In this document: positions 1 through 43,652 of the stretch, piece by piece | How positions within the stretch are numbered: position 1 is the first letter of the stretch | How the letters are laid out: each line of letters starts with the position of its first letter | From: a virus | Length of the DNA: 43,652 nucleotides | Strand: one strand, 5' to 3' | Virus genome (UHGV): UHGV-0201380 | Translations under genes and position numbers: made by a program | Notes under the pieces: generated by a model | Database searches by the model: none | Seen by the model: only the letters and a program-made list of their open reading frames with translations | What the model was told of the DNA's origin: nothing

Positions 1-72
1 ATGCTGCATACCGCGGGTCTATCGGCTCAGGCCCCAGGTCCATCAACTCCACAACACTGCCAGACTTTATAC

Positions 73-2490
73 TCATTCTACCTTCTCCTTACTGTACATA
101 CTCGTACCCATCTCAGCCTCTGCTGGGAACGGGACCTCACCAATGATGCCGTAGTTAGGCCAGAGCTGGTGAATACGCTTAGGTGCATCCTCCATGCACT
201 GCTTAACCAGCAGGCTCGCCTCACGTCCAACCTCCGGGTTGGCGCTGTCCAGATACAACGCATCGTGCACGTTCGTAATCAGGCACACCTGATTGTCGAA
301 CCAGTCACGGGCCAGGAGTGCACGCAGAACCATACCGGCGGCTACCGCCATCAGGAAGAATGCTTCCCCCTGGCACCAGTAGTTAGCCATCTCTGTTTCC
401 TTGTAGTCCATTACCTTCTGCTTACGCTGCCCAGGCACAACCTCTTTCCACTGCTCTTTCTGACGGAAACTGTAGCGGGCACCGGCTGGGCTGGTCCACG
501 TCCCAATGCGGTAGATTCGGTAGCTGCCGTCGTCAGCCTGCTCCCGGTACATGCGCCCCTCCGCACCGGTACGTTCTACCTCTTCCTTGACAACAGCGCG
601 GAAGCCAATTGTTTGCGGGAACAGCGCAGCCTCGTTGTCCAAGAAAGCCTGTGCAAATTCCACCGTACATCCAGTAGCAAACGCAATCCCCTTAGCCGTA
701 GCGCCATACTGGGCTGCAAAGCTAGGAGCCTTAATACCTGTACGCATTGCCTTCCAAAGCGGATGCAGCTCGTGCTTCTTGTTGTGGCAGCGCTCATATA
801 CTTCTTCATACGGTAATCCCTCGCGGAAAGCTAGGCGGTAACAGTGCATATCCGTACCACTCTGCAGCAGTCCCAGCAGTTTCTTGTCACCCGTGTGTAC
901 ACAGGACATAACCACTTCCAGTGCCGAGTAGTCAACCTCAGTGATACGTCCGTTGTCCCCGAATCTACTGGTGAACACCTGCTTCACCTTGGATTTAGCC
1001 ACACCGTCGCCATCCTCATCCGGGCGGGGTAGGTTCTGCAGGTTCGGGTTAGAGCTACTCAAGCGCCCGGTTACGGTGGCGCAAGTATTCAGCCGGTGGT
1101 GAATGATGCCGGAACCATCGGGACGCTCCGGGATTACATACTGCAGCATCCCCTTCCGCTCTTTTACATTACCTCCTGCGTCCAGTACTTCTCGCAAATA
1201 GTAAGTGCCGGTATCCTTCTCCAGCGCCGCCAGTTCGTTCACCAACTTACAGAACTCGAACCCTTGGCGAGCCAGCGCCTCCATTGCATCAGTGCTGGTG
1301 CTATACACAGGGGTGCCATCCTGCAGGGTGCGCGCCTGTCGGAACTCCCCGCGCTCTGCGTACTTCTCCCGGATAACTTCCGGAAGCTCCTGGATGTTCA
1401 CTAGGCCCGGGCAGAAGTAAAGGTCGTCTTCCCATTTAAGTTTCTCTTCCTCGGTATCGAGGCGGAATACTTTAGGGAGCCCCTTGTTCTTACCCGCACG
1501 ATATGTCACTACACGCCACCATCCGCCTTCCGTTTGAAGTTCTTGCATGTGCGTGTCGTGTACAGGTATATAGGTGTGCGCACCATCTTCGTCCTCGTAC
1601 TTATAGTAGTCGGCCTTGACGTACTGCGGAGGGTCATAGGGGACCTTCTTGCGGTACTTTATAGGCCCGCCGTACACCAGTGCAGACATATGAAAGTCCG
1701 ACCCGAAATTGAAGTCCAGCGTCTCCGGCAAGTCCTTCGGGATGTACTGCTGCAGTTCCTGCTTAATCTCACGGATGCGCTGCTCCTGCTCCTCCTGGTT
1801 CTTGCGTGCAATTGGCATATTCACGAACAGGCCGAACCACTCGCAGTACGCCCAAGCTAGCAAGGCATCCATACGTTCCCACACGTACTGCATCTGATTG
1901 CGCTGGGCGAACGTAGCGCACTGGCCGTAGAAGCACAGGGCCGTGTTCGGGATGTCCCCGTTAACCAGGTAGTCATGCAGCAGTATCGGGTCGATCTGGG
2001 AGGTTAACACACCCTGCTCCCATAGAATCTTAACCCCGTCTACTTTGTGCGTACCACCGTACTTAGGAGCCGTCTCGTCCAGAGACGGATACATGCTCTG
2101 AAAGTCCGAGGCGATGTATTCCCCGTGCATTGTGCAGAACACCCTGCCACCGCGCTTGAGGAAGGCCTCAAACTGCTGCCGCTGGTACGTGAGAAACCAA
2201 GAAATCTCATAGGCTGCGTTGTGCGCAACAATAAGCCAGCAATCCTCGGGGATATGAAACCACCGGCAGCCTTCTGCTGCACTGTTTCCCGCCAAGAAAT
2301 CAGCTCTTGAATTGAAGCGCACCGATTGAGTCGCGCCAACAGTGGTAGTACCGTCAGCCTGTGTCGTGTCGATACGCCATGCGGACTCAACAACATAGTT
2401 GTCAGGGCAGTATGGGCTTGCTTTAGAGCCGTAATATTCATGGTTCTCCGTCTCCAGGTCAAGGTGCATTATGCTGGTTGTCATTTCCAC
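73..2490 (-). CDS. Family A DNA polymerase (T7 gp5-like) with N-terminal 3'-5' exonuclease domain
   Basis: 805-aa track ORF. N-terminal MHLDLETEN resembles the exonuclease DxE motif; C-terminal VHDALYLD resembles Pol A motif C. Track start codon is GTG; an ATG two codons in (about 2484) follows a GGAGGG Shine-Dalgarno and is the likelier start. Position after primase and helicase matches phiKMV-like synteny. Confidence 0.9.
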   Translation of the reverse strand: MEMTTSIMHLDLETENHEYYGSKASPYCPDNYVVESAWRIDTTQADGTTTVGATQSVRFNSRADFLAGNSAAEGCRWFHIPEDCWLIVAHNAAYEISWFLTYQRQQFEAFLKRGGRVFCTMHGEYIASDFQSMYPSLDETAPKYGGTHKVDGVKILWEQGVLTSQIDPILLHDYLVNGDIPNTALCFYGQCATFAQRNQMQYVWERMDALLAWAYCEWFGLFVNMPIARKNQEEQEQRIREIKQELQQYIPKDLPETLDFNFGSDFHMSALVYGGPIKYRKKVPYDPPQYVKADYYKYEDEDGAHTYIPVHDTHMQELQTEGGWWRVVTYRAGKNKGLPKVFRLDTEEEKLKWEDDLYFCPGLVNIQELPEVIREKYAERGEFRQARTLQDGTPVYSTSTDAMEALARQGFEFCKLVNELAALEKDTGTYYLREVLDAGGNVKERKGMLQYVIPERPDGSGIIHHRLNTCATVTGRLSSSNPNLQNLPRPDEDGDGVAKSKVKQVFTSRFGDNGRITEVDYSALEVVMSCVHTGDKKLLGLLQSGTDMHCYRLAFREGLPYEEVYERCHNKKHELHPLWKAMRTGIKAPSFAAQYGATAKGIAFATGCTVEFAQAFLDNEAALFPQTIGFRAVVKEEVERTGAEGRMYREQADDGSYRIYRIGTWTSPAGARYSFRQKEQWKEVVPGQRKQKVMDYKETEMANYWCQGEAFFLMAVAAGMVLRALLARDWFDNQVCLITNVHDALYLDSANPEVGREASLLVKQCMEDAPKRIHQLWPNYGIIGEVPFPAEAEMGTSMYSKEKVE

Positions 2491-6456: not shown

Positions 6457-8138
6457 TAAGCTGCCTCCTCTGCTTCTTCTTCATCTTCATCGTTGCCCAG
6501 GTACTTCTCTCCCAAGCAATCAGCTGCATGCTCAGTGAGAATTAACCCGTGCACTGGGTGTTCTTCTGCGTGCTCAATAAGCACTTGCCGGTCCTGTGCA
6601 AACACCAGTTCCTCTTGGTCGTGCACTACACCCTCTACTTCGCAGCGCTCTATGTCCTCGTCGTATACATAGGCGTCGTGGTAATCAGACCAGGTGCAGC
6701 TCCAGCGATTATGCAGACCATCACGCCCAACTACGTACACAAAATCCCCTTCTTCTACGCAGCCGTCGCAGACCATATCACCATCTGCGGTCTCCTGCAT
6801 GTCATCTACAGAGTAGCGACATTCACAGCAGCAGCACCGAGCAGACTCAGTGCCTACGTAGATGTATCCTTCTGAGTCTTGTGCCTCGTACTCATAAGCA
6901 TCACGGATTACAAAGGCATCATCCCCATACTCATCTACGCCGCACTGGCTGCTATCTAGGTATGGCATCAGCACTGCGCCGTTGTATGTTGGGTGCGGTA
7001 TTCGCGCCAGCATTACCCCTTCGAGACATTCAATGTTTTTGGTGTACCCATGCCCCCGCAGGATTGCATCCGCAGCGTTGCCGTAAGCGCGGACGTACTC
7101 GTTAGTTTCTGTGTTAACGATTGCCCGTGCCTGCACTTCGAAATCGTCGCCGAACAGCTCCCCGGTGTACTGGATGAACAGGCGCAGCCCATTATCCGGC
7201 AACCCGTGGCTGGTGGTAGCGTACGTCCGCACAGAGCTATGCTCAAATGAGTACCCGCTCATGCAGCTACCCGGGCCATTCTCGTAGGCGTCGTACCATT
7301 CCTGCTCGGTCTTGCACAGGTACGTTGTAGGGTCTACGTTCATAGCCTTGAGGTCTTCGATAGCATCGCGGAAGTCCACACCATTTCCGTAGTAGTTAGC
7401 GAGCCACTTACCTACGCGCATCTCTACGCAGCGGTACTCAGTAACTGCTGCGAAGTCCTTGTGCATCCGCGGCTGCCCCAGCATCACGATAGGTTCGCCG
7501 TTGCGGAAACCAAAGCCCAAAGGCACGGCGAATCTAGACACTACGAAGCCGTGCAACTTCATGAGCAGCGCAGCTAAGTTGCCATCGCGGGTGTGGCGGC
7601 CGTAATCGTAGCCAGTGTATAAGCGGCGCTGCTGCTCTTCTGGTGCAAGCATGATGCGCTCAAATAACTGCACGGCCTGCTTGTGCACCTTGTAACCTGT
7701 GAATTCTTCGACGCAAGCAACTACGCGCTCAACCACTACATCCTCGCCCTCATAGAAGTCGCGGCGGCGTTCCCAGAACTTGCTGTCTATGGTGATTCGC
7801 ACCGGTTCAAAGAGTTCGCAGAAAGTTCCGGACCGGTACAGGTCCACCTTTTGCAACGGGCCGAGCGTCATCGTTGATTCGCGATACTCTGGGTGCAGTG
7901 CCCCGCCTATAGTCACCTCTAAGCCTGGAGTGTGCGCACTGACAGTGCGGAGACCCATAAGCACCTGCAGCGGACCCTCAGTGTGGGGATGGTCCTCCCC
8001 TTGCATTTGCAAGTCCTGGAACGGGGTCCAGTAATCACCGCTGGAATACATTGATTCTTTAATCGGCAGTGCGTTTGCACCTTCCGGTAACACTACTTTC
8101 CATTCGATAGGTGCTGTGTTAGTTTCTTGCATTTTCAT
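6456..8138 (-). CDS. Large early/middle protein of unknown function with Cys cluster and polyacidic C-terminal tail
   Basis: Track ORF is 6456..8426 (656 aa), but its 5' end overlaps the upstream 114-aa gene. ATG codons at about 8138 and 8132 follow a GGGAG Shine-Dalgarno, giving about 560 aa. Contains CCCCECRYSVDDMQETADGDMVCDGC and ends DEDEEEAEEAA. Confidence 0.6.
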   Translation of the reverse strand: MKMQETNTAPIEWKVVLPEGANALPIKESMYSSGDYWTPFQDLQMQGEDHPHTEGPLQVLMGLRTVSAHTPGLEVTIGGALHPEYRESTMTLGPLQKVDLYRSGTFCELFEPVRITIDSKFWERRRDFYEGEDVVVERVVACVEEFTGYKVHKQAVQLFERIMLAPEEQQRRLYTGYDYGRHTRDGNLAALLMKLHGFVVSRFAVPLGFGFRNGEPIVMLGQPRMHKDFAAVTEYRCVEMRVGKWLANYYGNGVDFRDAIEDLKAMNVDPTTYLCKTEQEWYDAYENGPGSCMSGYSFEHSSVRTYATTSHGLPDNGLRLFIQYTGELFGDDFEVQARAIVNTETNEYVRAYGNAADAILRGHGYTKNIECLEGVMLARIPHPTYNGAVLMPYLDSSQCGVDEYGDDAFVIRDAYEYEAQDSEGYIYVGTESARCCCCECRYSVDDMQETADGDMVCDGCVEEGDFVYVVGRDGLHNRWSCTWSDYHDAYVYDEDIERCEVEGVVHDQEELVFAQDRQVLIEHAEEHPVHGLILTEHAADCLGEKYLGNDEDEEEAEEAA

Positions 8139-11383: not shown

Positions 11384-12205
11384 AACAATATCTCCTTACA
11401 TAGTGATTAGTAGCGTAACCATAGCGACGATATCCCGGAGGGATAGGAGCGGAGGTTACAAGATTCTAGGTAATGCTTCCCTCCCTACGGTCAGTCATAC
11501 AGGGCATTACTAGGGGATACTAGTGACTACTAGTGAGTAGTAGTAAGTAGTGTGTATATAGTGCCCTAAAACCCTCCTACTCCTGTAACATCATTTCATG
11601 ACAGCTTTCGAATGAAAGTAAGAGCAAGGGGATAGCAAAGAGATAGCGCCGGGATAGTGTTGGGTGAGGATGTGCGCCCTAGTGGGGAGCGCGCAGCGTA
11701 GCATATAATCGGCACAATGTAAAGCACTAGGGATAGCCAGTGGATAGCCTAGTGCATACTAGGGATAGCACCGTGACGCACTACAGCGCACTAGGCAGGC
11801 CCACTATGGCCCCACAATGCAGGCACTAGGCGGGCCCACTATGGACGCGCAAAATAAGCAAGGCAGAGCGCACCCCTACGGCCCACAGGGAGCGCACAGG
11901 GATAGCCCCTAGTGCCCCGTAGAGCGCACAGGAGCCACTCAGTGCCACGCACAGGCCAAGCCGTGGGGCAGCACTAGCGATAGCCCCAGCGCAGCGCAGG
12001 GAGCCACTGAGGCCCTCTGAGGCTTCCGCTATAGCCACGGTCTTAGCTGCCGTGGCGCTCCACACCTCAGAGAGCGCCCTAGGGCCGTCTAGACGTCTAG
12101 GCACCCACCCCACCCCTCCTTTTATGCGCTAGGCACCCCCTATGGGGGCAATTGGCGTCGTTGAGGGTGAGGGAGGCTCAAGGGCGAGTATAATAATTTT
12201 TGGTT
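11384..12205. repeat. Non-coding repeat-rich region, probable physical genome terminus or terminal-repeat neighbourhood
   Basis: About 820 bp with no ORF of 60 aa or more on the coding strand. Dense short direct repeats (GGGATAGC about 8 times, CACTAG/CTAGTG about 9 times), a 21-bp direct repeat CACTAGGC(A/G)GGCCCACTATGG twice about 39 bp apart, and tagt-type microrepeats at 11521-11560. Lies between the last late gene and the early region. Confidence 0.5.
11575..11591 (-). promoter_or_regulatory. Candidate phage-RNAP promoter-like motif, copy A
   Basis: Exact 17-mer TCCTACTCCTGTAACAT (minus strand ATGTTACAGGAGTAGGA), one of three identical copies in the window, here within the terminus region. 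Confidence 0.35.
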
Positions 12206-12763: not shown

Positions 12764-14719
12764 TTAGAGATACACCTCCCAGGCTACCTGGGATACATCC
12801 GCTGCGTTACTACTCCTAATCACGAAGCTGTTTAGGTCCGGATTAGGTGTAGGTACATCCTGGTTCTGTGCTACGCCAGTAACCGTCAAGGCCCCAGCAC
12901 TAGAAGGAAAGGTTAACCGCGTCAACTTGACCTCAGACACCCACTTGAAGGAGTTAGCTACGCTGCCAAAGTTTCCGCGTACACGAGCGTTGACCGTAGC
13001 CTCACCCGCAACCAGTGTTGCCACTCCGCGAATGCTTGTGTCGTCCAGTAAGTTCCTGGACATGCGCGGAGGCGTAGGCTGCACAGTATAACCACTCAGT
13101 AATGCCCAAGACACACCGTGACCGGTCATGTCATTATTGGACATAGATACCATGGTAGGGTTAATGCCCATAGTCCCGTGGAAGTACACAGCTCTTCCGG
13201 TACCGTCGTAGCGCATGCTCACGTCATCAATCTCCAGGGATGTCTGCGCTGTCTCAGCCACATCCTTAGTGACGAAGATGTGAGAGCTGGAGTTGCGCGT
13301 GTACCGACCGCCTTTAACACGGCCCCCGTTGATTCGCACACCATTCTGGCTACCGTGAGCCTCGCAGTCATAAACGTAGCCACCACCGTACGAACAGTTA
13401 AAGCCAGAGCGTACGTTGTCATAAGCTAGGCACTCCCTATAGATAGGGAAGGCTACACCGGTGTTGGAGGCGAACCCGTCCAGAGCTGCACGGTAAGCTC
13501 GACAGTTCAAGTACTCTACCCCGTTAGTGCGCGCTTGGAACCCATCGTCAGCACTGTCGTACGAAACGCAGCGAACGAACTTCACACGCTTACCAATGTC
13601 GTGAGTATCAAATCCAGCATGGGTTGTGCTGTAGGCTTCGCAGTTAACGCCTAAGAACTCGATAGGCTCTCCCCACTTGTCCCCGTCTGCAGTGCTCTGC
13701 CAGTTCAAAGAGATTGCGTGGCGTACGTCCATAGCGTGGATATCGTGTACTTCCGTGTCCTCTGAGCAGCCGAGCACCTCTACCCCGTACCATCCGATGT
13801 TGTAGAAGTACGTACCCTTAACGGTGCTGTCTACGCAGTTATTGAACTTGATAGCGCTACGCCCTTCTATATCAGAAGCCCCTGGGCGTTTGTTGCCAAT
13901 AATAACCCCGTCCTGGATGTGCAAGTCCGCGGCAAAGTTGGCAGAGATACCGATAGTAAAGAACCGGTTCAAATCGTCGTAGCCGAACTCGTTGATGTAC
14001 GGGGATACTAAGGTTACGTTCTCCACCATTGTCGGGATACCTACTTCCGCAGCATCAGACAGGTAGTAGTTATAGTGCAGCGCTTTATCCAGCCGAATGC
14101 TGGTGACGCCACCGGAGGTGCTAACACCCACCACTTTCCTAATCTGGGAAATCTTTACCCCGTAGGTGTTAGGCCCACCGTCGCATAGCTTGTTAGAGCG
14201 AAGATACAAGTACGTACCTTTTACCACAGACAAAGCACCAGCAGCCACCGTAATGACTTTGCTGCCCGCCGCAGCGTCCGCCGCTAACGGTACGAACGCC
14301 GATGGTGCCGCGCCGATAATATTAAGCACCTGACGCGCAACCGCAGCGTCCGGTAGGATTCTTCCGGTATCGGTAAACTCTAGCGTAGAGTTGCTTTTGA
14401 TGTTGAGCACACTCGTGGCCTGCAGGACTGTGTCCACAACCAGGTGCCTATTAGGCGCGCTCATGAACGTGACTATGCCTGCCCAATTGCTGAACCAGGA
14501 GCTGTATGCCGGGCCCGTGAATTTACGGAGCAGATACCCACCGGGCACAGCAAACACAGTCCCGTTATCTACTACCGACGCAGCAGTAGTAAAGGTGAAA
14601 TCCCCACCACCACTGCCCAGTAGGATAATCTTGTCCTGCACCTGAAAGTTTGGATATGCTACCATGCTCGCCAAGTCGGAGAATACCCGCTCTGGAGCTA
14701 CTAATCTAATTAACGCCAT
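12764..14719 (-). CDS. Tailspike protein, probable polysaccharide depolymerase (beta-helix)
   Basis: 651 aa, Gly/Asn/Thr/Ser/Val-rich composition typical of parallel beta-helix tailspikes. Encoded after the lysis cassette at the genome end, as in KP34-like phages. Substrate unknown. Confidence 0.7.
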   Translation of the reverse strand: MALIRLVAPERVFSDLASMVAYPNFQVQDKIILLGSGGGDFTFTTAASVVDNGTVFAVPGGYLLRKFTGPAYSSWFSNWAGIVTFMSAPNRHLVVDTVLQATSVLNIKSNSTLEFTDTGRILPDAAVARQVLNIIGAAPSAFVPLAADAAAGSKVITVAAGALSVVKGTYLYLRSNKLCDGGPNTYGVKISQIRKVVGVSTSGGVTSIRLDKALHYNYYLSDAAEVGIPTMVENVTLVSPYINEFGYDDLNRFFTIGISANFAADLHIQDGVIIGNKRPGASDIEGRSAIKFNNCVDSTVKGTYFYNIGWYGVEVLGCSEDTEVHDIHAMDVRHAISLNWQSTADGDKWGEPIEFLGVNCEAYSTTHAGFDTHDIGKRVKFVRCVSYDSADDGFQARTNGVEYLNCRAYRAALDGFASNTGVAFPIYRECLAYDNVRSGFNCSYGGGYVYDCEAHGSQNGVRINGGRVKGGRYTRNSSSHIFVTKDVAETAQTSLEIDDVSMRYDGTGRAVYFHGTMGINPTMVSMSNNDMTGHGVSWALLSGYTVQPTPPRMSRNLLDDTSIRGVATLVAGEATVNARVRGNFGSVANSFKWVSEVKLTRLTFPSSAGALTVTGVAQNQDVPTPNPDLNSFVIRSSNAADVSQVAWEVYL

Positions 14720-19656: not shown

Positions 19657-22600
19657 TTAATCGTCTCCGAAGTTATTGATGATAGCTCGCGTAGGTGCGA
19701 ATTCCTGGATTAACGGCACCTGCTTAGTGAAGGTCTTGATATCCATATTACCGGTAGCCAGGTCCTGCACAGCCCCAAGTAGTCCTGTGACGTAACCCAT
19801 AGATGCCAATGAGTGACGGGGAGAATCCCCCAGGAAGATATCCTGTAGTAAGGATACACCGCCAATGGCACTCATACCCATCACGGACTCACCGATGAGT
19901 TTCTGGGTGTCTACGTCCTTCCCATCCATACCGTGCTTAGCCATAGTAGCCAGTAGCATCAGCGGGAATTGATACGCCATAATATGGGCTACGCCAATCC
20001 ACCCAGCGTCGCTCAGCTCCCTACGCAGAATCTTGTTAGTGGCGGCCAGTGCGAAGCTCTGGTACCCTACAATGACTTTGCCGATAGGGTTGAACTGTGC
20101 AAAGTGTGAGGTCTCTCCAGTACGAACCTGCTGTACCAGGTAGTCCATCATACGCGTCCCTACAACCTCAACTTGCATTTGCAGGTCCGGCTGGAACATG
20201 GCGCCCGGGTTGGCTTTGTTGGCAGCGATGGCACGGTCAGCAACGTCGCGGGTAAGCCCGAAACGCTCCAGACGCTTAAACGCCGCAGCATCACCCTTGA
20301 ACATCTGGGTAAGCTCATCCGCCACAATGCCGGAGTTCAGGTTAACCTGCAGCCGGTGCACCATGCTCATACCGTTGACGTGACGCGCAGCCTGCCCAAC
20401 GTTCTGGGTTACATTGAACCAAGAGGCCTGACGGGTCAGGTCCAGGTTATCGTCGGCGTACGTATTCAACCAGCGGAAGCGCATCTCCTTCTGGATATTA
20501 CCTCGCAGTACAGTGTCTAGACGGGTAGCCATATCCGGAGTCTTGATAGCTACGGCACCTTCCTTGAACCAAGGCTGGTCACGCATACTACGCAGCACTC
20601 TAGCCATACCGAACTCCTTCATAGCCAGGGCAGTGTCAGTCAGCTGATACAGGCCGGAGTTCTTAAGCATGGTGGCGTTAGCCATGTTCCCGGCTGCACG
20701 CAGCAAATCCGGAAGCTGTCCGGCGTCAGCAGGCGCCCCACCCAGGATAAAGTCGATGGTGTCATTGACTGTCTTCTCCCACTTAGCGGAATCCGCCAGT
20801 GCGTGCTTAGACTCATCAATCATCTTAGCTAGCTGGCCCAGGTCCTGTACGCCTGCATAGGCCATGCCTACACGCCCAGACATACGGTTAGTGTACCCGT
20901 GCATAACCTTGGCTACATCAGTATCCATCAGGTCCTGCATGCGCATGCTCTTACCGTTCACCAGATACTCTTTGTCCATGTTGAACCGAGTACGCTGACG
21001 CAGGTTCCGCGCAGGGGATGTGCTACCGGATTCGCGTACGTTACCAGCCAGGAAACTCTGGATTGCAGATTCATCTACACCAGCGCTACGCATAGCCATA
21101 ACGACCTCGTCGTTACCCATGCCGTTAATCAGCTGCTTCCACATCGGGCCGGACTGCCCTGCACGGCCGTTGTAGATACCGTCAACCATCTCCTTTGCAA
21201 CACGCTGCACTACCTCTGACTCCATGCTCGGGTACACGTCCCGCAGGGCGGACCTGAACAGGGCGCGGTAGTCGTCCAGAGTGTTACCCTGCGCAATACC
21301 TTGGCGCATCTTGTCGTAGCTGTACTGACGCGGGAAGTAGTAATCGGATTTAACCAACGCACCATCATCCACTAGACCAGCATTGAGCATATGCTCGTGC
21401 CACTTGCCTGCCCAGCCAGAGCGGCGATAGGCGTCAACCAGTGGGGCAATCTCTGCATCCGGTACGGGAACAGCTCGGCCGTTTACATCAGCACTGTAGG
21501 CAGCATCCAGGTACTTGCTCAGGCGGTCTTCCAGTGCAGCCCGCTCAGCGCGGAACTTGCTCCGATGGAAGAAGCGCTCAGAGAAACCTACACCCTTATC
21601 CTTCAACGCGCCCAGGATAGCGTCTTCCACTACGCTAGCGCTGGCGTCCATCTCCAAAGTGAGGTTGCGCTTGAAGTCCACTACAGACGGGCGACGGCCG
21701 CCTACTGCGGACGCATCCGACACTAGCAGTTTAGCCAAGTCTTCATTGCCTTGAGCGATGTTATCGTACAGGGCAAACATAGTAGAGAGCTTCTTCTTAG
21801 CGCCATCCAGCATAGCTTGGGCACCCTTAGCCTCGTTTAGGGTAGTGCTGCCCGCCAGGTCCTGGAAGGCTTCACTACGGAAGCCCTGGGCTTGGTCTGC
21901 ATAATCCTTAGCTGTCCACTTAACGGCGTCCTCGTACGCATCCAAGACATCTTCCAAGGCAGAACCTTTGGCCTTGATGCCCAGGGCATTCATGATGTAC
22001 TCGCCCAGTTGGCGGAGCATGCTCTTACCGGTTGGGGATTTCGTCCGCGCCAGATGCTCAACCCACTCAGGGCTGTCACCTAAGCCTGCCAGCATCTCGT
22101 GCACATTACTAGCGTAATACCGCATACGCGGCGTCAAGGTGGAGTCCGCTGCAATAACAGCGCGCACTTCATCCAGGCGCTTAGCAATCTCTGGGTTACT
22201 GTCAACGGCGCGCGCAGTGGCGGCATGAATCAGTTCGTGCACGGCTACCCTGCTTGTGTCTGCATCCATAGCACGCAGTGCGTCCCCTGCTGTAGTCCAT
22301 GTGCTGCCATTAGCTCGCTTAGGTGCGCGTAGAGACACCTCTCCACGCTTAGCTAAATCTTGCTGTGCGTAAGTGTAGCGGCTGCGGTTTGCGGAGCCTG
22401 CTACCAGTTTAAAATCAATGTCATTTACAGCATCGCCCAGCGTGTCCAGAATAGCCTTCTGGCCTGCTGTTAAGTGTTCGGACTTCTTCAAGAACTGAAC
22501 TACGTGCTGTGCTTTCATGTTCACGGAGGCGGTATTGTTTCTAGATACTTGGATGCTTTCATCCAGTGTCTTAGTAAGGATTTCCTCTCCCTCTCCTACT

Positions 22601-23355
22601 CCTGTAACATTAGCGTCCCTCGCTGTACGAGTTGTAGGCGCTTCTGGGTCGAACATAGGCTCACGCCCAGTACGAGCCTTAGCAGCAGCTTTAGCAGCCC
22701 TAGACATATCCCAGAGCTGGTCCAACCCAGCTACGCCCGCTACCAGTGCAGTTACCGCAGCAGACTGGCCCAGTTGGTCCTGCGCATAGAATGCGGAGCC
22801 TACGTCAGCAGCGCGGATAGCAGTCCGTGCAGCTAAGCCTGCGCGGCCAGCAATACCAGCGGCAGACATCGGGGCCAGGATGAACGGAGAATCACCCACC
22901 AACATACCCGCGAACCCGGCTACCGTGTTGTCAGCCATTAAGCGGTCACGGTTGCGTTGCTCAAGCATCTGCTGCATGCGGTAGTTGTAATCCTCGACCG
23001 ATACAGAGTCGTGCAGGTACTCAATCTCTTCCTGATTCGGAGCATACAGCTTAGCCCTGGTATCGCTGCTCAGAGTCTGCTTGGCGTTAAAGTTCTGGTC
23101 CCGGTCAAATGCCGGGGCAGAGGCCTTACGGATAGCTGCGGCGATGATGCTGTTACCCATACCAGACGCAAAGCTCTCCCCGGCTGTAGTAGCTGGGGTC
23201 TTGGCCTGCGCCAGTAAGGAGGCACGCTCCAGTGCGTTTAAGCCGTTGTCTCCGGCATCGTTCCAATCTACGCGCTCAGGCGCAGGTTTAAGTGTTGCGC
23301 CCTTAGCAGAATCCTTTTCCTGTGGATTCGGTTCTTGGTTCAGAAACTGAGCCAT
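19657..23355 (-). CDS. Internal virion protein (T7 gp16-like ejection/core protein)
   Basis: 1232 aa; largest ORF, last of three consecutive internal virion protein genes between tail tubular B and the tail fibre. Confidence 0.75.
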   Translation of the reverse strand: MAQFLNQEPNPQEKDSAKGATLKPAPERVDWNDAGDNGLNALERASLLAQAKTPATTAGESFASGMGNSIIAAAIRKASAPAFDRDQNFNAKQTLSSDTRAKLYAPNQEEIEYLHDSVSVEDYNYRMQQMLEQRNRDRLMADNTVAGFAGMLVGDSPFILAPMSAAGIAGRAGLAARTAIRAADVGSAFYAQDQLGQSAAVTALVAGVAGLDQLWDMSRAAKAAAKARTGREPMFDPEAPTTRTARDANVTGVGEGEEILTKTLDESIQVSRNNTASVNMKAQHVVQFLKKSEHLTAGQKAILDTLGDAVNDIDFKLVAGSANRSRYTYAQQDLAKRGEVSLRAPKRANGSTWTTAGDALRAMDADTSRVAVHELIHAATARAVDSNPEIAKRLDEVRAVIAADSTLTPRMRYYASNVHEMLAGLGDSPEWVEHLARTKSPTGKSMLRQLGEYIMNALGIKAKGSALEDVLDAYEDAVKWTAKDYADQAQGFRSEAFQDLAGSTTLNEAKGAQAMLDGAKKKLSTMFALYDNIAQGNEDLAKLLVSDASAVGGRRPSVVDFKRNLTLEMDASASVVEDAILGALKDKGVGFSERFFHRSKFRAERAALEDRLSKYLDAAYSADVNGRAVPVPDAEIAPLVDAYRRSGWAGKWHEHMLNAGLVDDGALVKSDYYFPRQYSYDKMRQGIAQGNTLDDYRALFRSALRDVYPSMESEVVQRVAKEMVDGIYNGRAGQSGPMWKQLINGMGNDEVVMAMRSAGVDESAIQSFLAGNVRESGSTSPARNLRQRTRFNMDKEYLVNGKSMRMQDLMDTDVAKVMHGYTNRMSGRVGMAYAGVQDLGQLAKMIDESKHALADSAKWEKTVNDTIDFILGGAPADAGQLPDLLRAAGNMANATMLKNSGLYQLTDTALAMKEFGMARVLRSMRDQPWFKEGAVAIKTPDMATRLDTVLRGNIQKEMRFRWLNTYADDNLDLTRQASWFNVTQNVGQAARHVNGMSMVHRLQVNLNSGIVADELTQMFKGDAAAFKRLERFGLTRDVADRAIAANKANPGAMFQPDLQMQVEVVGTRMMDYLVQQVRTGETSHFAQFNPIGKVIVGYQSFALAATNKILRRELSDAGWIGVAHIMAYQFPLMLLATMAKHGMDGKDVDTQKLIGESVMGMSAIGGVSLLQDIFLGDSPRHSLASMGYVTGLLGAVQDLATGNMDIKTFTKQVPLIQEFAPTRAIINNFGDD
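22594..22610 (-). promoter_or_regulatory. Candidate phage-RNAP promoter-like motif, copy B (intragenic)
   Basis: Exact 17-mer TCCTACTCCTGTAACAT inside the gp16-like gene, about 760 nt from its start. Confidence 0.3.
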
Positions 23356-34501: not shown

Positions 34502-34518
34502 TCCTACTCCTGTAACAT
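34502..34518 (-). promoter_or_regulatory. Candidate phage-RNAP promoter-like motif, copy C
   Basis: Exact 17-mer TCCTACTCCTGTAACAT (minus TTAATGTTACAGGAGTAGGA), immediately after the RNAP stop and before the structural module. Loosely reminiscent of T7-group promoters in length and the TAAT-start/purine-rich-end layout. Confidence 0.4.
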
Positions 34519-34526
34519 TAAATTTT

Positions 34527-36995
34527 TTAGCAGAAGAAGAACGGGGATTCTAGCACTTGCCGGATGTCCAAAGTGCCCACTTCCGGCATGTCCAGGTCCG
34601 TCAAGTCTGCCCCGGCTGCTGCTGCTGCGCGAGTAATGTCGCCAAGCAGGTCATTCTCTTCATACAGGCGCACAAACTGCTCACGGATGTGCCTATGCAT
34701 AGCGTCAACGTCAGCTGCGTGAGTAGCCAGCGAGTCGTGAATAGGCACAATATCCAGACCCTCCGCAGCGCAGAGCACCATCATCAAGTGCGTACTGTCC
34801 AGGCTATGCACAAAGTTCGGGGCAATCCCGGAGGCTGCCTTGCGCTTGTTGCAAGTTTTGAAGTCCCGGTTGTGTACCAGTACCGCTGATAGGTTCATGC
34901 AGTCAATACGTACGCGCACTTCTTCACGCTGCGTGTAGCGGTTCATTACGAGCCCACCCAGCGGCGTATACCACTGCAGATGCTGGCTTGCCGGTACACG
35001 CCTAGCGAGGTTCTGCAAGTACCCCATAACTGCGGCTGCGGCTGGGTTTGCCTCCTCGATAGCAGTGCGCATACGCGGAGCCAGGTAGCATGACAAGTTC
35101 CACAGACTGTTAGTCTCAGTACCCTCGTACCCCTCAGCGCAAGCGCCTTCGAAGATGTAGTCGCTGCAGCTGCGCACAGTGGCGCTGTAGAAGTAGGTCA
35201 TACTAGGGCGCTTGGTCATGCTGCGGGTGATTTCGTTCTCTCTCCAGTACGTGCTCTGGATAACGAAATCCTCCTTGTCCAGGTCCAGTATCACCTTCTC
35301 GTCCGTACGGCGCTTCACGTCCATGTACAGGTCCGCTTTCTTATCATTACCCTCCCAGTACAGGTTCGTCAAGCGTCCGCCCACAGGGTCTCTCAGGAGC
35401 GCTGAGAGATGCTGTCCACCTGAGTTTGTAGCGTCCATAGCAACTGGGATTCGGCTAATATGCTCTTCTGGGCATCCAGAACGAACCGCATTAACCAAGT
35501 CGATAGCGGCGGCCAGCAGGCACCAGGGGCTATCCGCAGAGGAAAAAGCAGGGGCATCAAGAGGAGAATCCGCGAGCCTCTCAATCTCTGCATAGTTCGC
35601 ATCAACCCAAGCTGCACGGTCTTCGAATAGGGTTTTGTCATAACCAAAGCAAGTGGCGACGTGCACTTTAAGCCAGAAAAGTCCGCGCTCTCCCAGAGGC
35701 TTGCCACGTCCGAATTCAAGAAGGGCTTTCTGCAAATCAGAACCTTGGGGATGCAGCGAGGACTTGAAGTACAGGCGGTAGCGCCAGTCCACACAAGTCG
35801 GGAAGTACAGGGCTTTCTCATCTTTGAATTCCTCCGCCATTTCCAGCGTGGTCAACAGGCTGCGTAGTTGTGACACACGCTTACGGTCTGCGCTGTACCA
35901 TAGGGACATGCGCGTCTTCCACTCACCGAAGCGGTCCAGTTCTTCTTCGGTGTAGTTCTCTTTTGGTACTCCATCCAAGTACCACTCCGGTTTAGGCTCT
36001 GGTACTGAGCGGGGCATGCCCACCCCAATACCCAGGGCCCGTGCTTCTTGCACCAGTTCCAGTATGCGCTTATTAATACGGTATGGGGTTTCCTGCGCCT
36101 TATTAAGCGCCTTTTTGATGCCGTCCGCGGACTTGAATGCTTCTGCTACTTCACGGAGTCGCGCGCGGTCGATGTGCGAGTTGTGATAGGTCCCGCGATT
36201 GTCGATGGGGGTAAGGTACCCGCCATCCCACATAGTGGTGTGCTGTACCGGTGGCACCAGCATAGGCGGCTTCATGGTTACGGTATCAGCGGACTCTACC
36301 AGTTTCTGGAAGGCCTCCATAACATCGTCAGCCGGGTAGAGCATGCTCAGGTTCCCACTACAGTTCTTCCATTGGAACAGGCCAGTCTCAAACACCGCGG
36401 CACATAGCAGCCGACCTACTGAGATATTCTGGGAGTTGGTCCATGGCTCGTGCCCATAGTGCACGTTCTCAGCACTGGCCCGCAGCGTACGCAGGATGTG
36501 CGTGGGAGACTTGGTCTTACGCTCCGTAAGGTACTCGTACACACGGTCCATGTACGCCGGAGCCACGTTGCGTAACTGCAGGGCCAGCAGTTCCGATTGT
36601 ACGTTCCGGCCCAGCGCGGACATTACCGCCTGTGCAGTCTGGCGGCGGCTAGCGGACTCGCCAGGAGCTACGCTAAATGCCTCAAACATTGTGCATAGGC
36701 TCAGGGTGGTCAGGACATCCAAGGGGACTAAGCGCAGGAACCGGCGGTACTTACCGCCAATGCCCGGGGCTTTTACATTTCGCATCTCATCGATAGCGGC
36801 GGCGGCCACCTCATATGCCGAGGTGAGCATACGCTGCGTCATCGGCAGGTTCATAATCCCACCGTTCTGCAATGCGTCCGTAATCAGCTTACGTGCCCGC
36901 TCGATTCCGCGAATCTTATAGGTCTCTTCAAGCTCCAGCTGGCGTTTCACCAGTGCTTCCTCTGGTACTACAACCGTATTCAGGGCGCTAATCAT
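34527..36995 (-). CDS. Single-subunit DNA-directed RNA polymerase (T7 RNAP family), located next to the structural module
   Basis: 822 aa. Motif A-like PVAMDATNSGGQH, motif B-like RSMTKRPSMTYFYSAT, motif C-like PIHDSLATHAAD. AAGGAGA Shine-Dalgarno. Placement directly upstream of portal is the phiKMV-like hallmark. Confidence 0.95.
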   Translation of the reverse strand: MISALNTVVVPEEALVKRQLELEETYKIRGIERARKLITDALQNGGIMNLPMTQRMLTSAYEVAAAAIDEMRNVKAPGIGGKYRRFLRLVPLDVLTTLSLCTMFEAFSVAPGESASRRQTAQAVMSALGRNVQSELLALQLRNVAPAYMDRVYEYLTERKTKSPTHILRTLRASAENVHYGHEPWTNSQNISVGRLLCAAVFETGLFQWKNCSGNLSMLYPADDVMEAFQKLVESADTVTMKPPMLVPPVQHTTMWDGGYLTPIDNRGTYHNSHIDRARLREVAEAFKSADGIKKALNKAQETPYRINKRILELVQEARALGIGVGMPRSVPEPKPEWYLDGVPKENYTEEELDRFGEWKTRMSLWYSADRKRVSQLRSLLTTLEMAEEFKDEKALYFPTCVDWRYRLYFKSSLHPQGSDLQKALLEFGRGKPLGERGLFWLKVHVATCFGYDKTLFEDRAAWVDANYAEIERLADSPLDAPAFSSADSPWCLLAAAIDLVNAVRSGCPEEHISRIPVAMDATNSGGQHLSALLRDPVGGRLTNLYWEGNDKKADLYMDVKRRTDEKVILDLDKEDFVIQSTYWRENEITRSMTKRPSMTYFYSATVRSCSDYIFEGACAEGYEGTETNSLWNLSCYLAPRMRTAIEEANPAAAAVMGYLQNLARRVPASQHLQWYTPLGGLVMNRYTQREEVRVRIDCMNLSAVLVHNRDFKTCNKRKAASGIAPNFVHSLDSTHLMMVLCAAEGLDIVPIHDSLATHAADVDAMHRHIREQFVRLYEENDLLGDITRAAAAAGADLTDLDMPEVGTLDIRQVLESPFFFC

Positions 36996-41972: not shown

Positions 41973-42918
41973 CAAGCAGCATCGGGATTAACTGCGGACA
42001 GCCCTCGGTGATTACCATCACACCCAGGATTGGTTTCTTGCGGGTGAGTCTGCCGTAAGCAAAGGCCATGCTCTTACGGTCAATCAGACACCCAGCATAC
42101 GCACCAAAGTACAAAGCTGTTGAGCTAGCTGCATATTGCACCTCAAAGCGACCATGTTCGTGACCAAGGACAAGGCTGGTTCTTTCGTGGCTAGCGTTGA
42201 GCATGAAGTCACCCGACACTTGATGCTGGAATCTAACCGGGCCAAGTGGGGTATTGAGTACCCATGCGTCAGCCCAAGACCACGCCGGGGCACCATGCTC
42301 AGGGAAAAGTATATCTCGGTACTTCTTGATGAATTGCACTGGTAGCCCGTGAGCTTTCGCCCTGCGGTAAACCAGACTGCCGTGATTGGAATCGCAAACC
42401 AGTAGGTTCGGGAATAGTTCATGCAGCTCCTCCAGTACGAGCTTGGCTTTCTCCAGCTCCACCCCGGCGCTATCTAGGTTCGGGTTACTTTCGTGGAATG
42501 ATATAGCGTGGCCGTCCGTCTCGTCGCCTACCTGTACAACCATGTCCGGACAGTAGGCGTCTCGCACAGATTCTAAGAAGGCCATAGCATCTACGTGCGT
42601 ATAGGGGGCATGCAAATCCCCAACTACGAGAATACGGTGGCACACTTCCGGCACGAAGGTTTTGCCGATGTCATCAGTGGGACTGGGCTGTATGAGCTTT
42701 AGTGCCTCCTTCATGTGGGATATTGCCTTACCCTTGCTCCCAGCGTGGTCTAGGAATATGCTGCGCCAGTACTTCACCATCTGTCGATACACCACTGGCT
42801 CGTCCAGTCCCGCCAGATTATTATAGGCGGCAGCAGCATCCACGTTAGAGCTGTGCTTGCTCAAGATATCTATGTGTTGCTCTTTGGTGAATAGCTTTAT
42901 TGTGTTTAACTTAGGCAT
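41929..42918 (-). CDS. Calcineurin-like metallophosphoesterase (Ser/Thr protein phosphatase / phosphodiesterase superfamily)
   Basis: 329 aa with the ordered motifs VVGDLHAPY (GDxH), VQVGDETDGH (GDxxD), CDSNHGS (GNH[DE]-like) and LGHEHGRF (GH-x-H). Substrate cannot be assigned. Confidence 0.8.
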   Translation of the reverse strand: MPKLNTIKLFTKEQHIDILSKHSSNVDAAAAYNNLAGLDEPVVYRQMVKYWRSIFLDHAGSKGKAISHMKEALKLIQPSPTDDIGKTFVPEVCHRILVVGDLHAPYTHVDAMAFLESVRDAYCPDMVVQVGDETDGHAISFHESNPNLDSAGVELEKAKLVLEELHELFPNLLVCDSNHGSLVYRRAKAHGLPVQFIKKYRDILFPEHGAPAWSWADAWVLNTPLGPVRFQHQVSGDFMLNASHERTSLVLGHEHGRFEVQYAASSTALYFGAYAGCLIDRKSMAFAYGRLTRKKPILGVMVITEGCPQLIPMLLDDSGRWCARDKTKD

Positions 42919-43345
42919 TCCAGCTCCTGTTACTTATTACGTCACTAATTACATGTACACCTACACCGTACTTATTAGCAAAGTGTTGCCGCATACCTTT
43001 CTTGTATGGGATATAGTTATCCCTGATATCCTGCACAGCATCCCAAGTTAACTGCGCTTTTGGGTTCCTATCCCCACGCACATCTGGGTTCCTTCCGCGC
43101 TCTGCACGGTCCCGCATATTATCCATATGCGTTCCCAATACTAAGTGCTTAGGGTTAATGCACCTGGGGTTATCGCAGGTATGTCTAACAGACAGGCCAG
43201 CCAGCGCCCTTATATCCAGCCCGTTATGCTCAGCATACACCACCCGATGCAGCAGCTCCAATCGCCTGGTCGGCTTATACCATGCCCGGCGGTATCCGTT
43301 CTTGTTAAGGCATTTGTTATACCCGTGGTCAATACACATCGACAT
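42911..43345 (-). CDS. HNH homing endonuclease
   Basis: 144 aa with HRVVYAEHNG ... HTCDNPRCINPKHLVLGTHMDNM. Overlaps the phosphoesterase start by 8 nt. Confidence 0.85.
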   Translation of the reverse strand: MSMCIDHGYNKCLNKNGYRRAWYKPTRRLELLHRVVYAEHNGLDIRALAGLSVRHTCDNPRCINPKHLVLGTHMDNMRDRAERGRNPDVRGDRNPKAQLTWDAVQDIRDNYIPYKKGMRQHFANKYGVGVHVISDVISNRSWNA

Positions 43346-43506
43346 TCGGTATCCTCTTGTGTTGTTCCTACTCGTATCACATTAATTCTCTGTGAATCAC
43401 AGAATCAAGCTAGAGTCAACAAATAATTTTATTTAATTATTTAGTTGACCCCAGTGTATTTCCATGCTACCCTAACCCCCTACACCACCCAAGGGTCCAC
43501 CTATCA

Positions 43507-43652
43507 CTATTCCACGATAAGCTTGTACTCCCCCGGGAAGAAGGTAACACCATCCCCCGGTCTACTTACTACTAGTCCAGGATAACTTAGTTCTATCTCC
43601 CCAGTAACCGGGTCGAAGAACATGACCGTGTGCCTCGTACCCGGGGCGAAGT
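43507..43652 (-). CDS. 3' portion of a small ORF truncated at the window edge (continues at 1..43 if the sequence is circular)
   Basis: The minus-strand frame is open from the window end to a TAG at about 43507. The same frame continues through the revcomp of positions 1..72 to an ATG at about 43..41 (GGAG upstream), giving a 65-aa ORF directly downstream of the DNA polymerase stop. Confidence 0.3.
   Translation of the reverse strand, partial: FAPGTRHTVMFFDPVTGEIELSYPGLVVSRPGDGVTFFPGEYKLIVE

Follow-up and report, generated by a model that had tools for sequence, protein, structure and literature searches.

The minus-strand reading frame in the last 146 positions of the 43,652-nt viral DNA analysed here (the window) is still open where the sequence stops, and it raises the question whether the two ends of the window are joined in the real molecule and what gene the coordinates may have cut in two. 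The original prediction placed the end of this frame at a TAG near 43507 and described it as open to the window end. This is confirmed by the sequence: the stop codon occupies 43509..43507 and is followed directly by a second one (TGA, 43506..43504), and from 43510 to 43652 the frame runs for 143 nt, or 47 codons and two further nt, without a stop. When the reverse complement of the window start is joined to this tail the frame remains open with no break, and codon 26 (TAC, Tyr26) straddles the boundary, being composed of position 1 and positions 43652 and 43651. The predicted continuation through the window start was correct, but not the ATG at 43..41 from which it was thought to begin. Upstream, the frame is bounded by a TAA (91..89); its first ATG lies at 76..74. 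Translation from this codon gives a product of 73 aa, MSIKSGSVVELMDLGPEPIDPRYAAYFAPGTRHTVMFFDPVTGEIELSYPGLVVSRPGDGVTFFPGEYKLIVE. The length of 65 aa given in the prediction does not hold, since even its own ATG, which encodes Met12, yields 62 aa.

The idea that the window coordinates divide a small gene is borne out, with the cut in codon 26 and the gene intact, at 73 aa, in relatives and in other contigs. Its 5' part, from the ATG to the first base of codon 26, is found on the minus strand at 1..76, as indicated by the sequence, the PHROG 6862 profile and the conservation of the 11 N-terminal residues. The 3' part, from the second and third bases of codon 26 to Glu73 and the TAG, lies at 43507..43652 on the same strand and is 100% identical to two contigs that join both parts.

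The gene belongs to a family that is already known, PHROG 6862, and is the ortholog of KP34 gene 21 and fHe-Kpn01 g23. The profile match (E 4.8e-40) covers the whole protein (residues 1-73) and all 73 profile positions. A search for the joined peptide in related phages, suggested together with the prediction, gave a positive answer in that this full-length match was accompanied by an annotated 222-nt CDS, overlapping the polymerase gene by 4 nt, in RCIP0044, ZX22, KP34 (gene 21) and AttikonH4 (AttikonH4_26). The same arrangement of polymerase and small gene was observed in 10 metagenome contigs. Homologs from metagenomes and Drulisvirus phages form 24 clusters, with lengths of 72-73 aa in nearly all of them and phmmer identities of 59-95% at 100% coverage. 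An alignment of 22 sequences contains 28 invariant columns (I3, K4, G6 and V9 among them), all of which are kept in the joined window protein, and so are the family motifs LGPEP, PGT.H, E.EL and PGDG.TFF.GEY. Residues 1-11 are conserved across all homologs, and M, L, V or I occurs at position 12. The dN/dS values (Nei-Gojobori) are low, 0.09 versus KP34 and 0.19 versus AttikonH4 (dS 1.4 in the latter comparison), which argues for a real gene under purifying selection. KP34 gp21 (ACY66752.1; about 93% protein identity) has the same length of 73 aa, the same 4-nt overlap with the polymerase gene and the same 161-nt intergenic region downstream. The window copy differs from KP34 gp21 and fHe-Kpn01 Gp23 in being split by the coordinate origin, and in nothing else of substance.

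Outside this family the protein has few relatives. A profile search of 1.8 billion representatives returned only 15 hits, of which the full-length ones were the same small family; hits to long proteins were short, repeat-like matches and were rejected as relatives. The few distant relatives, of 65-78 aa, have the motif GS.H...GEVE...TFFPGEYK in common. One of them, in Salmonella phage KKP 3828 (Koutsourovirus), overlaps the end of a 774-aa ORF that is annotated as a hypothetical protein only and occupies the slot of the Drulisvirus DNA polymerase. The joined protein had no match in Pfam (E up to 1), in NCBIfam or among PDB sequences.

Directly upstream of the small gene is a family A DNA polymerase gene at 73..2490 on the minus strand (Pfam DNA_pol_A, E 2.5e-28), and its TGA stop codon, 75..73, shares bases with the ATG at 76..74 (ATGA). 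A Shine-Dalgarno sequence, TAAGGAG, can be read within the 3'-terminal part of the polymerase gene (85..91, minus strand), 8 nt 5' of this ATG. If the gene instead began at ATG 43..41, with a 62-aa product and with 44..76 untranslated, the start codon would be in frame and preceded by a GGAG, but the spacing between the two would be just 3 nt. Such a start is also at odds with the homologs, in which residue 12 varies while the four residues I3, K4, G6 and V9 ahead of it are invariant, with the extent of the PHROG profile, and with the 222-nt CDS called in every annotated relative. We consider it extremely unlikely. On the plus strand the window begins with the ATG of a 271-aa ORF (1..816), antisense to the DNA polymerase gene, which is most likely spurious.

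The original prediction took the continuing frame as support for the window ends being contiguous. The inference was right, but the argument is weak by itself. The window contains 323 ORFs of at least 40 aa, and when the 143-nt tail was joined at random to other window positions in simulations, 29.5% of the joins extended the frame equally far (at least 26 codons, with an ATG). Because so many random joins stay open too, an open frame across the boundary is, taken alone, not beyond chance. What is beyond chance is the homology of the joined protein, the purifying selection, and the existence of identical contigs that span the junction.

Two such contigs were found, namely k127_30252 of ENA ERZ917445 (SRR413609, human gut metagenome, 43,779 nt) and Ga0250154_00308 of JGI 3300055984 (43,772 nt). 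Each matches the joined ends at 100.000% identity throughout the 6,222 nt fetched, of which 3,076 nt lie to one side of the junction and 3,146 nt to the other side, and neither contig has an end within 10 kb of the junction. Flanking sequence that breaks the frame would have spoken against contiguity; these contigs continue across the junction with the frame intact. The contig k127_30252 is longer than the window by 127 nt (43,779 - 127 = 43,652) and thus corresponds to the window plus the k=127 overlap, the terminal overlap expected for a circularising k=127 contig. Between window start and window end no overlap was found for k = 8-399; the end overlap had been trimmed off already.

The junction is also present in catalogued phages. 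A 713-nt query across it matched 252 phage records, nearly all Klebsiella phages of the genus Drulisvirus (best RCIP0106, 99.7%, and RCIP0044, 99.6%), and in 220 of the 252 a single contiguous match takes in at least 80% of the query. The Klebsiella phage vB_KpP_AttikonH4 runs across the junction, with its record position 13387 corresponding to window 15 and 13402 to window 43652, and the 14 unaligned bases per side of the boundary pair one to one with AttikonH4, none being lost or added. The window ends are therefore contiguous in the real molecule, as shown by the two identical contigs, the 220 GenBank Drulisvirus records and the collinearity with AttikonH4.

If the ends were not contiguous, the window would be part of some larger or other molecule and the continuation in frame a coincidence. 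The frequency of open random joins is in keeping with such a coincidence. However, two independent contigs identical over 6.2 kb across the junction refute it, and it is further contradicted by the intact junction in the phage records, by the full-length match to its family of the joined protein, which occurs in exactly this form on 31 contigs, and by the collinearity of the window with the whole genome of a relative, so that it retains next to no probability. Contiguous ends do not, on the other hand, amount to circular virion DNA, as the relatives are linear with fixed direct terminal repeats (DTRs). A truly circular or circularly permuted virion DNA, the latter from headful packaging, would have no fixed ends and any start would be valid; the circularising contig agrees with this, as do the many different start points with which records of the genus have been deposited in GenBank. 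Against it are the fixed terminal repeats of fHe-Kpn01 (blunt ends, 222-bp DTR, determined by ligation and Sanger sequencing, restriction analysis and PhageTerm; PMC7291057), AttikonH4 (297 bp) and VKV295 (181 bp), the homologous start, at window 12172, that several records share, and the T7-like podovirus gene layout, which fits fixed terminal repeats. We therefore regard circular or permuted virion DNA as very unlikely.

The probable position of the virion ends can be read from AttikonH4, which is annotated with a 297-nt direct terminal repeat at either end and runs collinear with the whole window on the minus strand. Record position 1 corresponds to window 12172 and record 42577 to window 14697, while record 44558-44899, which comprises the right repeat and the 52 nt before it, corresponds to window 12224-11906. 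Both AttikonH4 repeat copies thus fall on one window region, about 12172-11880, and no direct repeats of at least 40 nt were found within the window, so that it appears to hold one collapsed repeat copy. This single DTR-homologous region, at about 11880..12172 (extending to about 12224) on the minus strand, is where the virion ends probably lie. Window 12172 is likewise the homologous start of several other phage records, whereas the starts of VKV295 and KP34 map about 100 nt further in, at about 12070. These starts probably put the true virion ends at around 12.07–12.17 kb in the window, some 12 kb away from the boundary. Both the exact ends and the DTR length are here assigned by homology, with the relatives differing by about 100 nt in the former (12172 versus about 12070) and having repeats of 181-297 bp. 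On this mapping the window represents a linear genome in reverse complement, with its start shifted by about 12 kb from the virion ends and with one repeat copy. Such a form very probably arose because linear virion DNA with DTRs replicates through concatemers and the assembler merged the two repeat copies, so that the contig circularised; the circularised metagenomic contig was then reverse-complemented and opened at an arbitrary point, which happened to be inside codon 26 of a 73-codon gene.

Taken together, the window is very probably a complete Drulisvirus genome (Autographiviridae, Slopekvirinae), i.e. that of a KP34-like Klebsiella podovirus, present as a circularising contig with the boundary splitting the ortholog of gene 21/g23. 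Collinear blocks have about 85-93% nucleotide identity to relatives, with which the window shares the gene order on a single strand, and the annotated AttikonH4 RNA polymerase aligns at 90.9% to window 34534..36965. No record identical to the window was found in the phage collection, the best matches being about 90-92% over 25 kb (several Klebsiella phages), and the window is a new isolate-level genome within a well-known genus. The strong promoter of the KP34 RNA polymerase, T(A/G)ATGTTACAGGAGTA, has been defined experimentally (PMC6834552). It occurs in three exact copies in the window, at 11593..11578, 22612..22597 and 34520..34505, all on the minus strand, and these match the reported KP34 sites by position (one in the early region, one directly behind the RNA polymerase gene and one within the gene for the large internal virion protein). 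Compared with fHe-Kpn01, AttikonH4 and VKV295, the window has the same gene order on one strand but is reverse-complemented, rotated by about 12 kb and in possession of one repeat copy rather than two. A further difference from the relatives with determined ends is the divergent tailspike region at 12764..14719. The 651-aa ORF that fills it (minus strand) occupies the slot of the AttikonH4 'tail fiber protein' and gave no alignment, AttikonH4 record 42577-44558 being unmatched. Klebsiella podoviruses typically exchange their capsule-specific receptor-binding proteins, and the divergence agrees with this.

The small gene is followed by an intergenic region of 161 nt (43346..43506, minus strand) that is conserved among relatives. 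Its identity is 91-100%, also in AttikonH4, though the small gene there has only 73%, and it is kept whatever follows: an HNH gene in the window, a Gp5.5-like gene in KP34 and AttikonH4, and a 327-aa ORF in L011. The HNH homing-type endonuclease gene (42911..43345, minus strand; Pfam HNH_3 and zf-His_Me_endon) is present in only some relatives, and the different gene found at this place in KP34 and AttikonH4 has 279 nt and is annotated as a Gp5.5-like H-NS inhibitor. Several more HNH genes, at variable sites, were seen in the relatives. The 161-nt region contains a G-rich tract and a 19-bp AT-rich hairpin at 43410-43454 (fold z-score -3.5). At 43384..43369 the sequence TAATGTGATACGAGTA agrees with the KP34 strong promoter, as defined in PMC6834552, at 13 of 16 positions; since 0.49 matches with at most three mismatches are expected per window, the agreement is only suggestive. 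Searches for Rfam families in 43200-43652 found none, and in a scan of 42800-43652 matches to sigma-70 and terminator consensus sequences did not exceed what shuffled sequence would give. The 19-mer ATACGAGTAGGAACAACAC and the 40-nt hairpin sequence were considered as repeated phage motifs and discarded, each being single-copy in the window. The single-strand nick of fHe-Kpn01 was likewise dismissed as a feature of the intergenic region, as it is reported at nt 7873, elsewhere in the genome. To judge from its sequence features, the region may serve as a phage promoter, of the weak or the middle kind, or as an element resembling an origin.

The site between polymerase and small gene is an insertion hot spot among relatives, and the window is without an insert. 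RCIP0106 has an extra 159-aa ORF there (L003 1886-2365). In fHe-Kpn01 and SU503 a nucleotidyltransferase-like gene (g22), which is toxic in E. coli, is found between the polymerase gene and g23 (PMC7291057). With such inserts in some relatives, the small gene's adjacency to the polymerase gene is usual but not obligatory, which also argues against a strict need for polymerase-coupled expression.

Experimental information on the family comes from fHe-Kpn01, where g23 (13431-13652) encodes 73 aa, with cloning primers that encode MHIKPGS... and ...KLIAE (PMC7291057). Gp23 is absent from the detected virion proteome and had no match in HHpred; g23 gave few transformants in a crude ligation screen, yet its induction from pBAD33 caused no toxicity in E. 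coli (PMC7291057). A literature search for KP34 gp21, at the level of search hits, identified no functional study.

The structure was modelled on a homolog that is 95% identical to the window protein (P0001), using AF2 with the family alignment. The model (mean pLDDT 89, pTM 0.77) has five β-strands and one short helix, and the predicted fold may be an SH3/KOW-like small β-barrel, the resemblance being at the level of the fold only. Foldseek comparison of the model with PDB and BFVD gave nothing with E <0.01, the best being no better than 0.02. In relation to known KOW/SH3-like barrels (Spt5 and NusG KOW, L24, OapB, PetP and PsaE) the identity is 11-23%, with no Pfam KOW or SH3 match, and the small protein has an extra helix at residues 21-27. 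It is also acidic (10 D+E versus 5 K+R, pI 4.58, 8.0 kDa), unlike nucleic-acid-binding KOW domains, which are typically basic, and direct binding of nucleic acid is therefore unlikely.

A protein-binding role of this small acidic protein is most likely. We suggest that it is a non-virion member of the DNA-metabolism gene block, probably translated by termination-reinitiation coupled to the upstream gene at the ATGA overlap, and that rather than being an enzyme it would bind another protein, either of the phage replication machinery or of the host. ATGA overlaps are, however, common between unrelated phage genes. A more specific proposal is that the protein is a dedicated accessory subunit of the DNA polymerase, for example in processivity or replisome coupling, that is made in step with it via the ATGA. 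The position of the gene directly after the polymerase in both Drulisvirus and Koutsourovirus speaks for this, together with the purifying selection and the absence of the protein from the virion, whereas other genes separate the two in some members of the genus, the predicted fold is generic and the interaction is putative only. We judge this proposal unlikely, if with a chance worth keeping in mind. Somewhat less probable still is the pair of readings in which the small protein is a replisome accessory restricted to the Slopekvirinae, such as a partner of the family A polymerase, or the 161-nt region is a replication origin acting in cis or an unrecognised middle promoter for the KP34-type RNA polymerase. 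T7 genes 5.3-5.9 offer a comparison by position only, being small non-structural genes right after polymerase gene 5 in a T7-like podovirus. Several of their products bind proteins of the host, gp5.5 binding H-NS and gp5.9 binding RecBCD. No match in sequence or fold between the small protein and the T7 5.3-5.9 products was found.

The split of the gene is an ordinary assembly artefact of an arbitrary start point, and with the true packaging ends about 12 kb off, the window boundary has no biological meaning. Both the exact 73-aa sequence (P0038; DAV54604.1, 'MAG TPA: hypothetical protein [Caudoviricetes sp.]') and the gene family are already known publicly, so the finding is correct in substance and ordinary in meaning. 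In practice the window is best handled as a complete genome in rotated form, and annotation has to be carried across the origin, as otherwise a conserved gene is lost or bogus fragments are created. The small gene itself, genus-wide and under purifying selection but still a 'hypothetical protein', is a modest functional target for Klebsiella therapeutic phages.

A bogus fragment of this kind appears to be exemplified by DAV54605.1 (P0032, 32 aa, MSIKSGSVVELMDLGPEPIDPRYAALCTVRRR), which consists of residues 1-25 of the small protein followed by LCTVRRR. It is reproduced exactly, and only, by reading on the minus strand from window position 1 into position 100. The accession next to it, DAV54604.1, is the intact protein of 73 aa. 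From this we infer that both come from a publicly deposited MAG contig on which an end overlap of 100 nt, reaching to the window boundary, had been left untrimmed; taking that overlap off would give the window. A 54-aa protein in the JGI data (P0024) is a frameshifted copy of the small gene, consistent with the loss of one G in the GCCCCGGG run, which lies within a few nt of the boundary.
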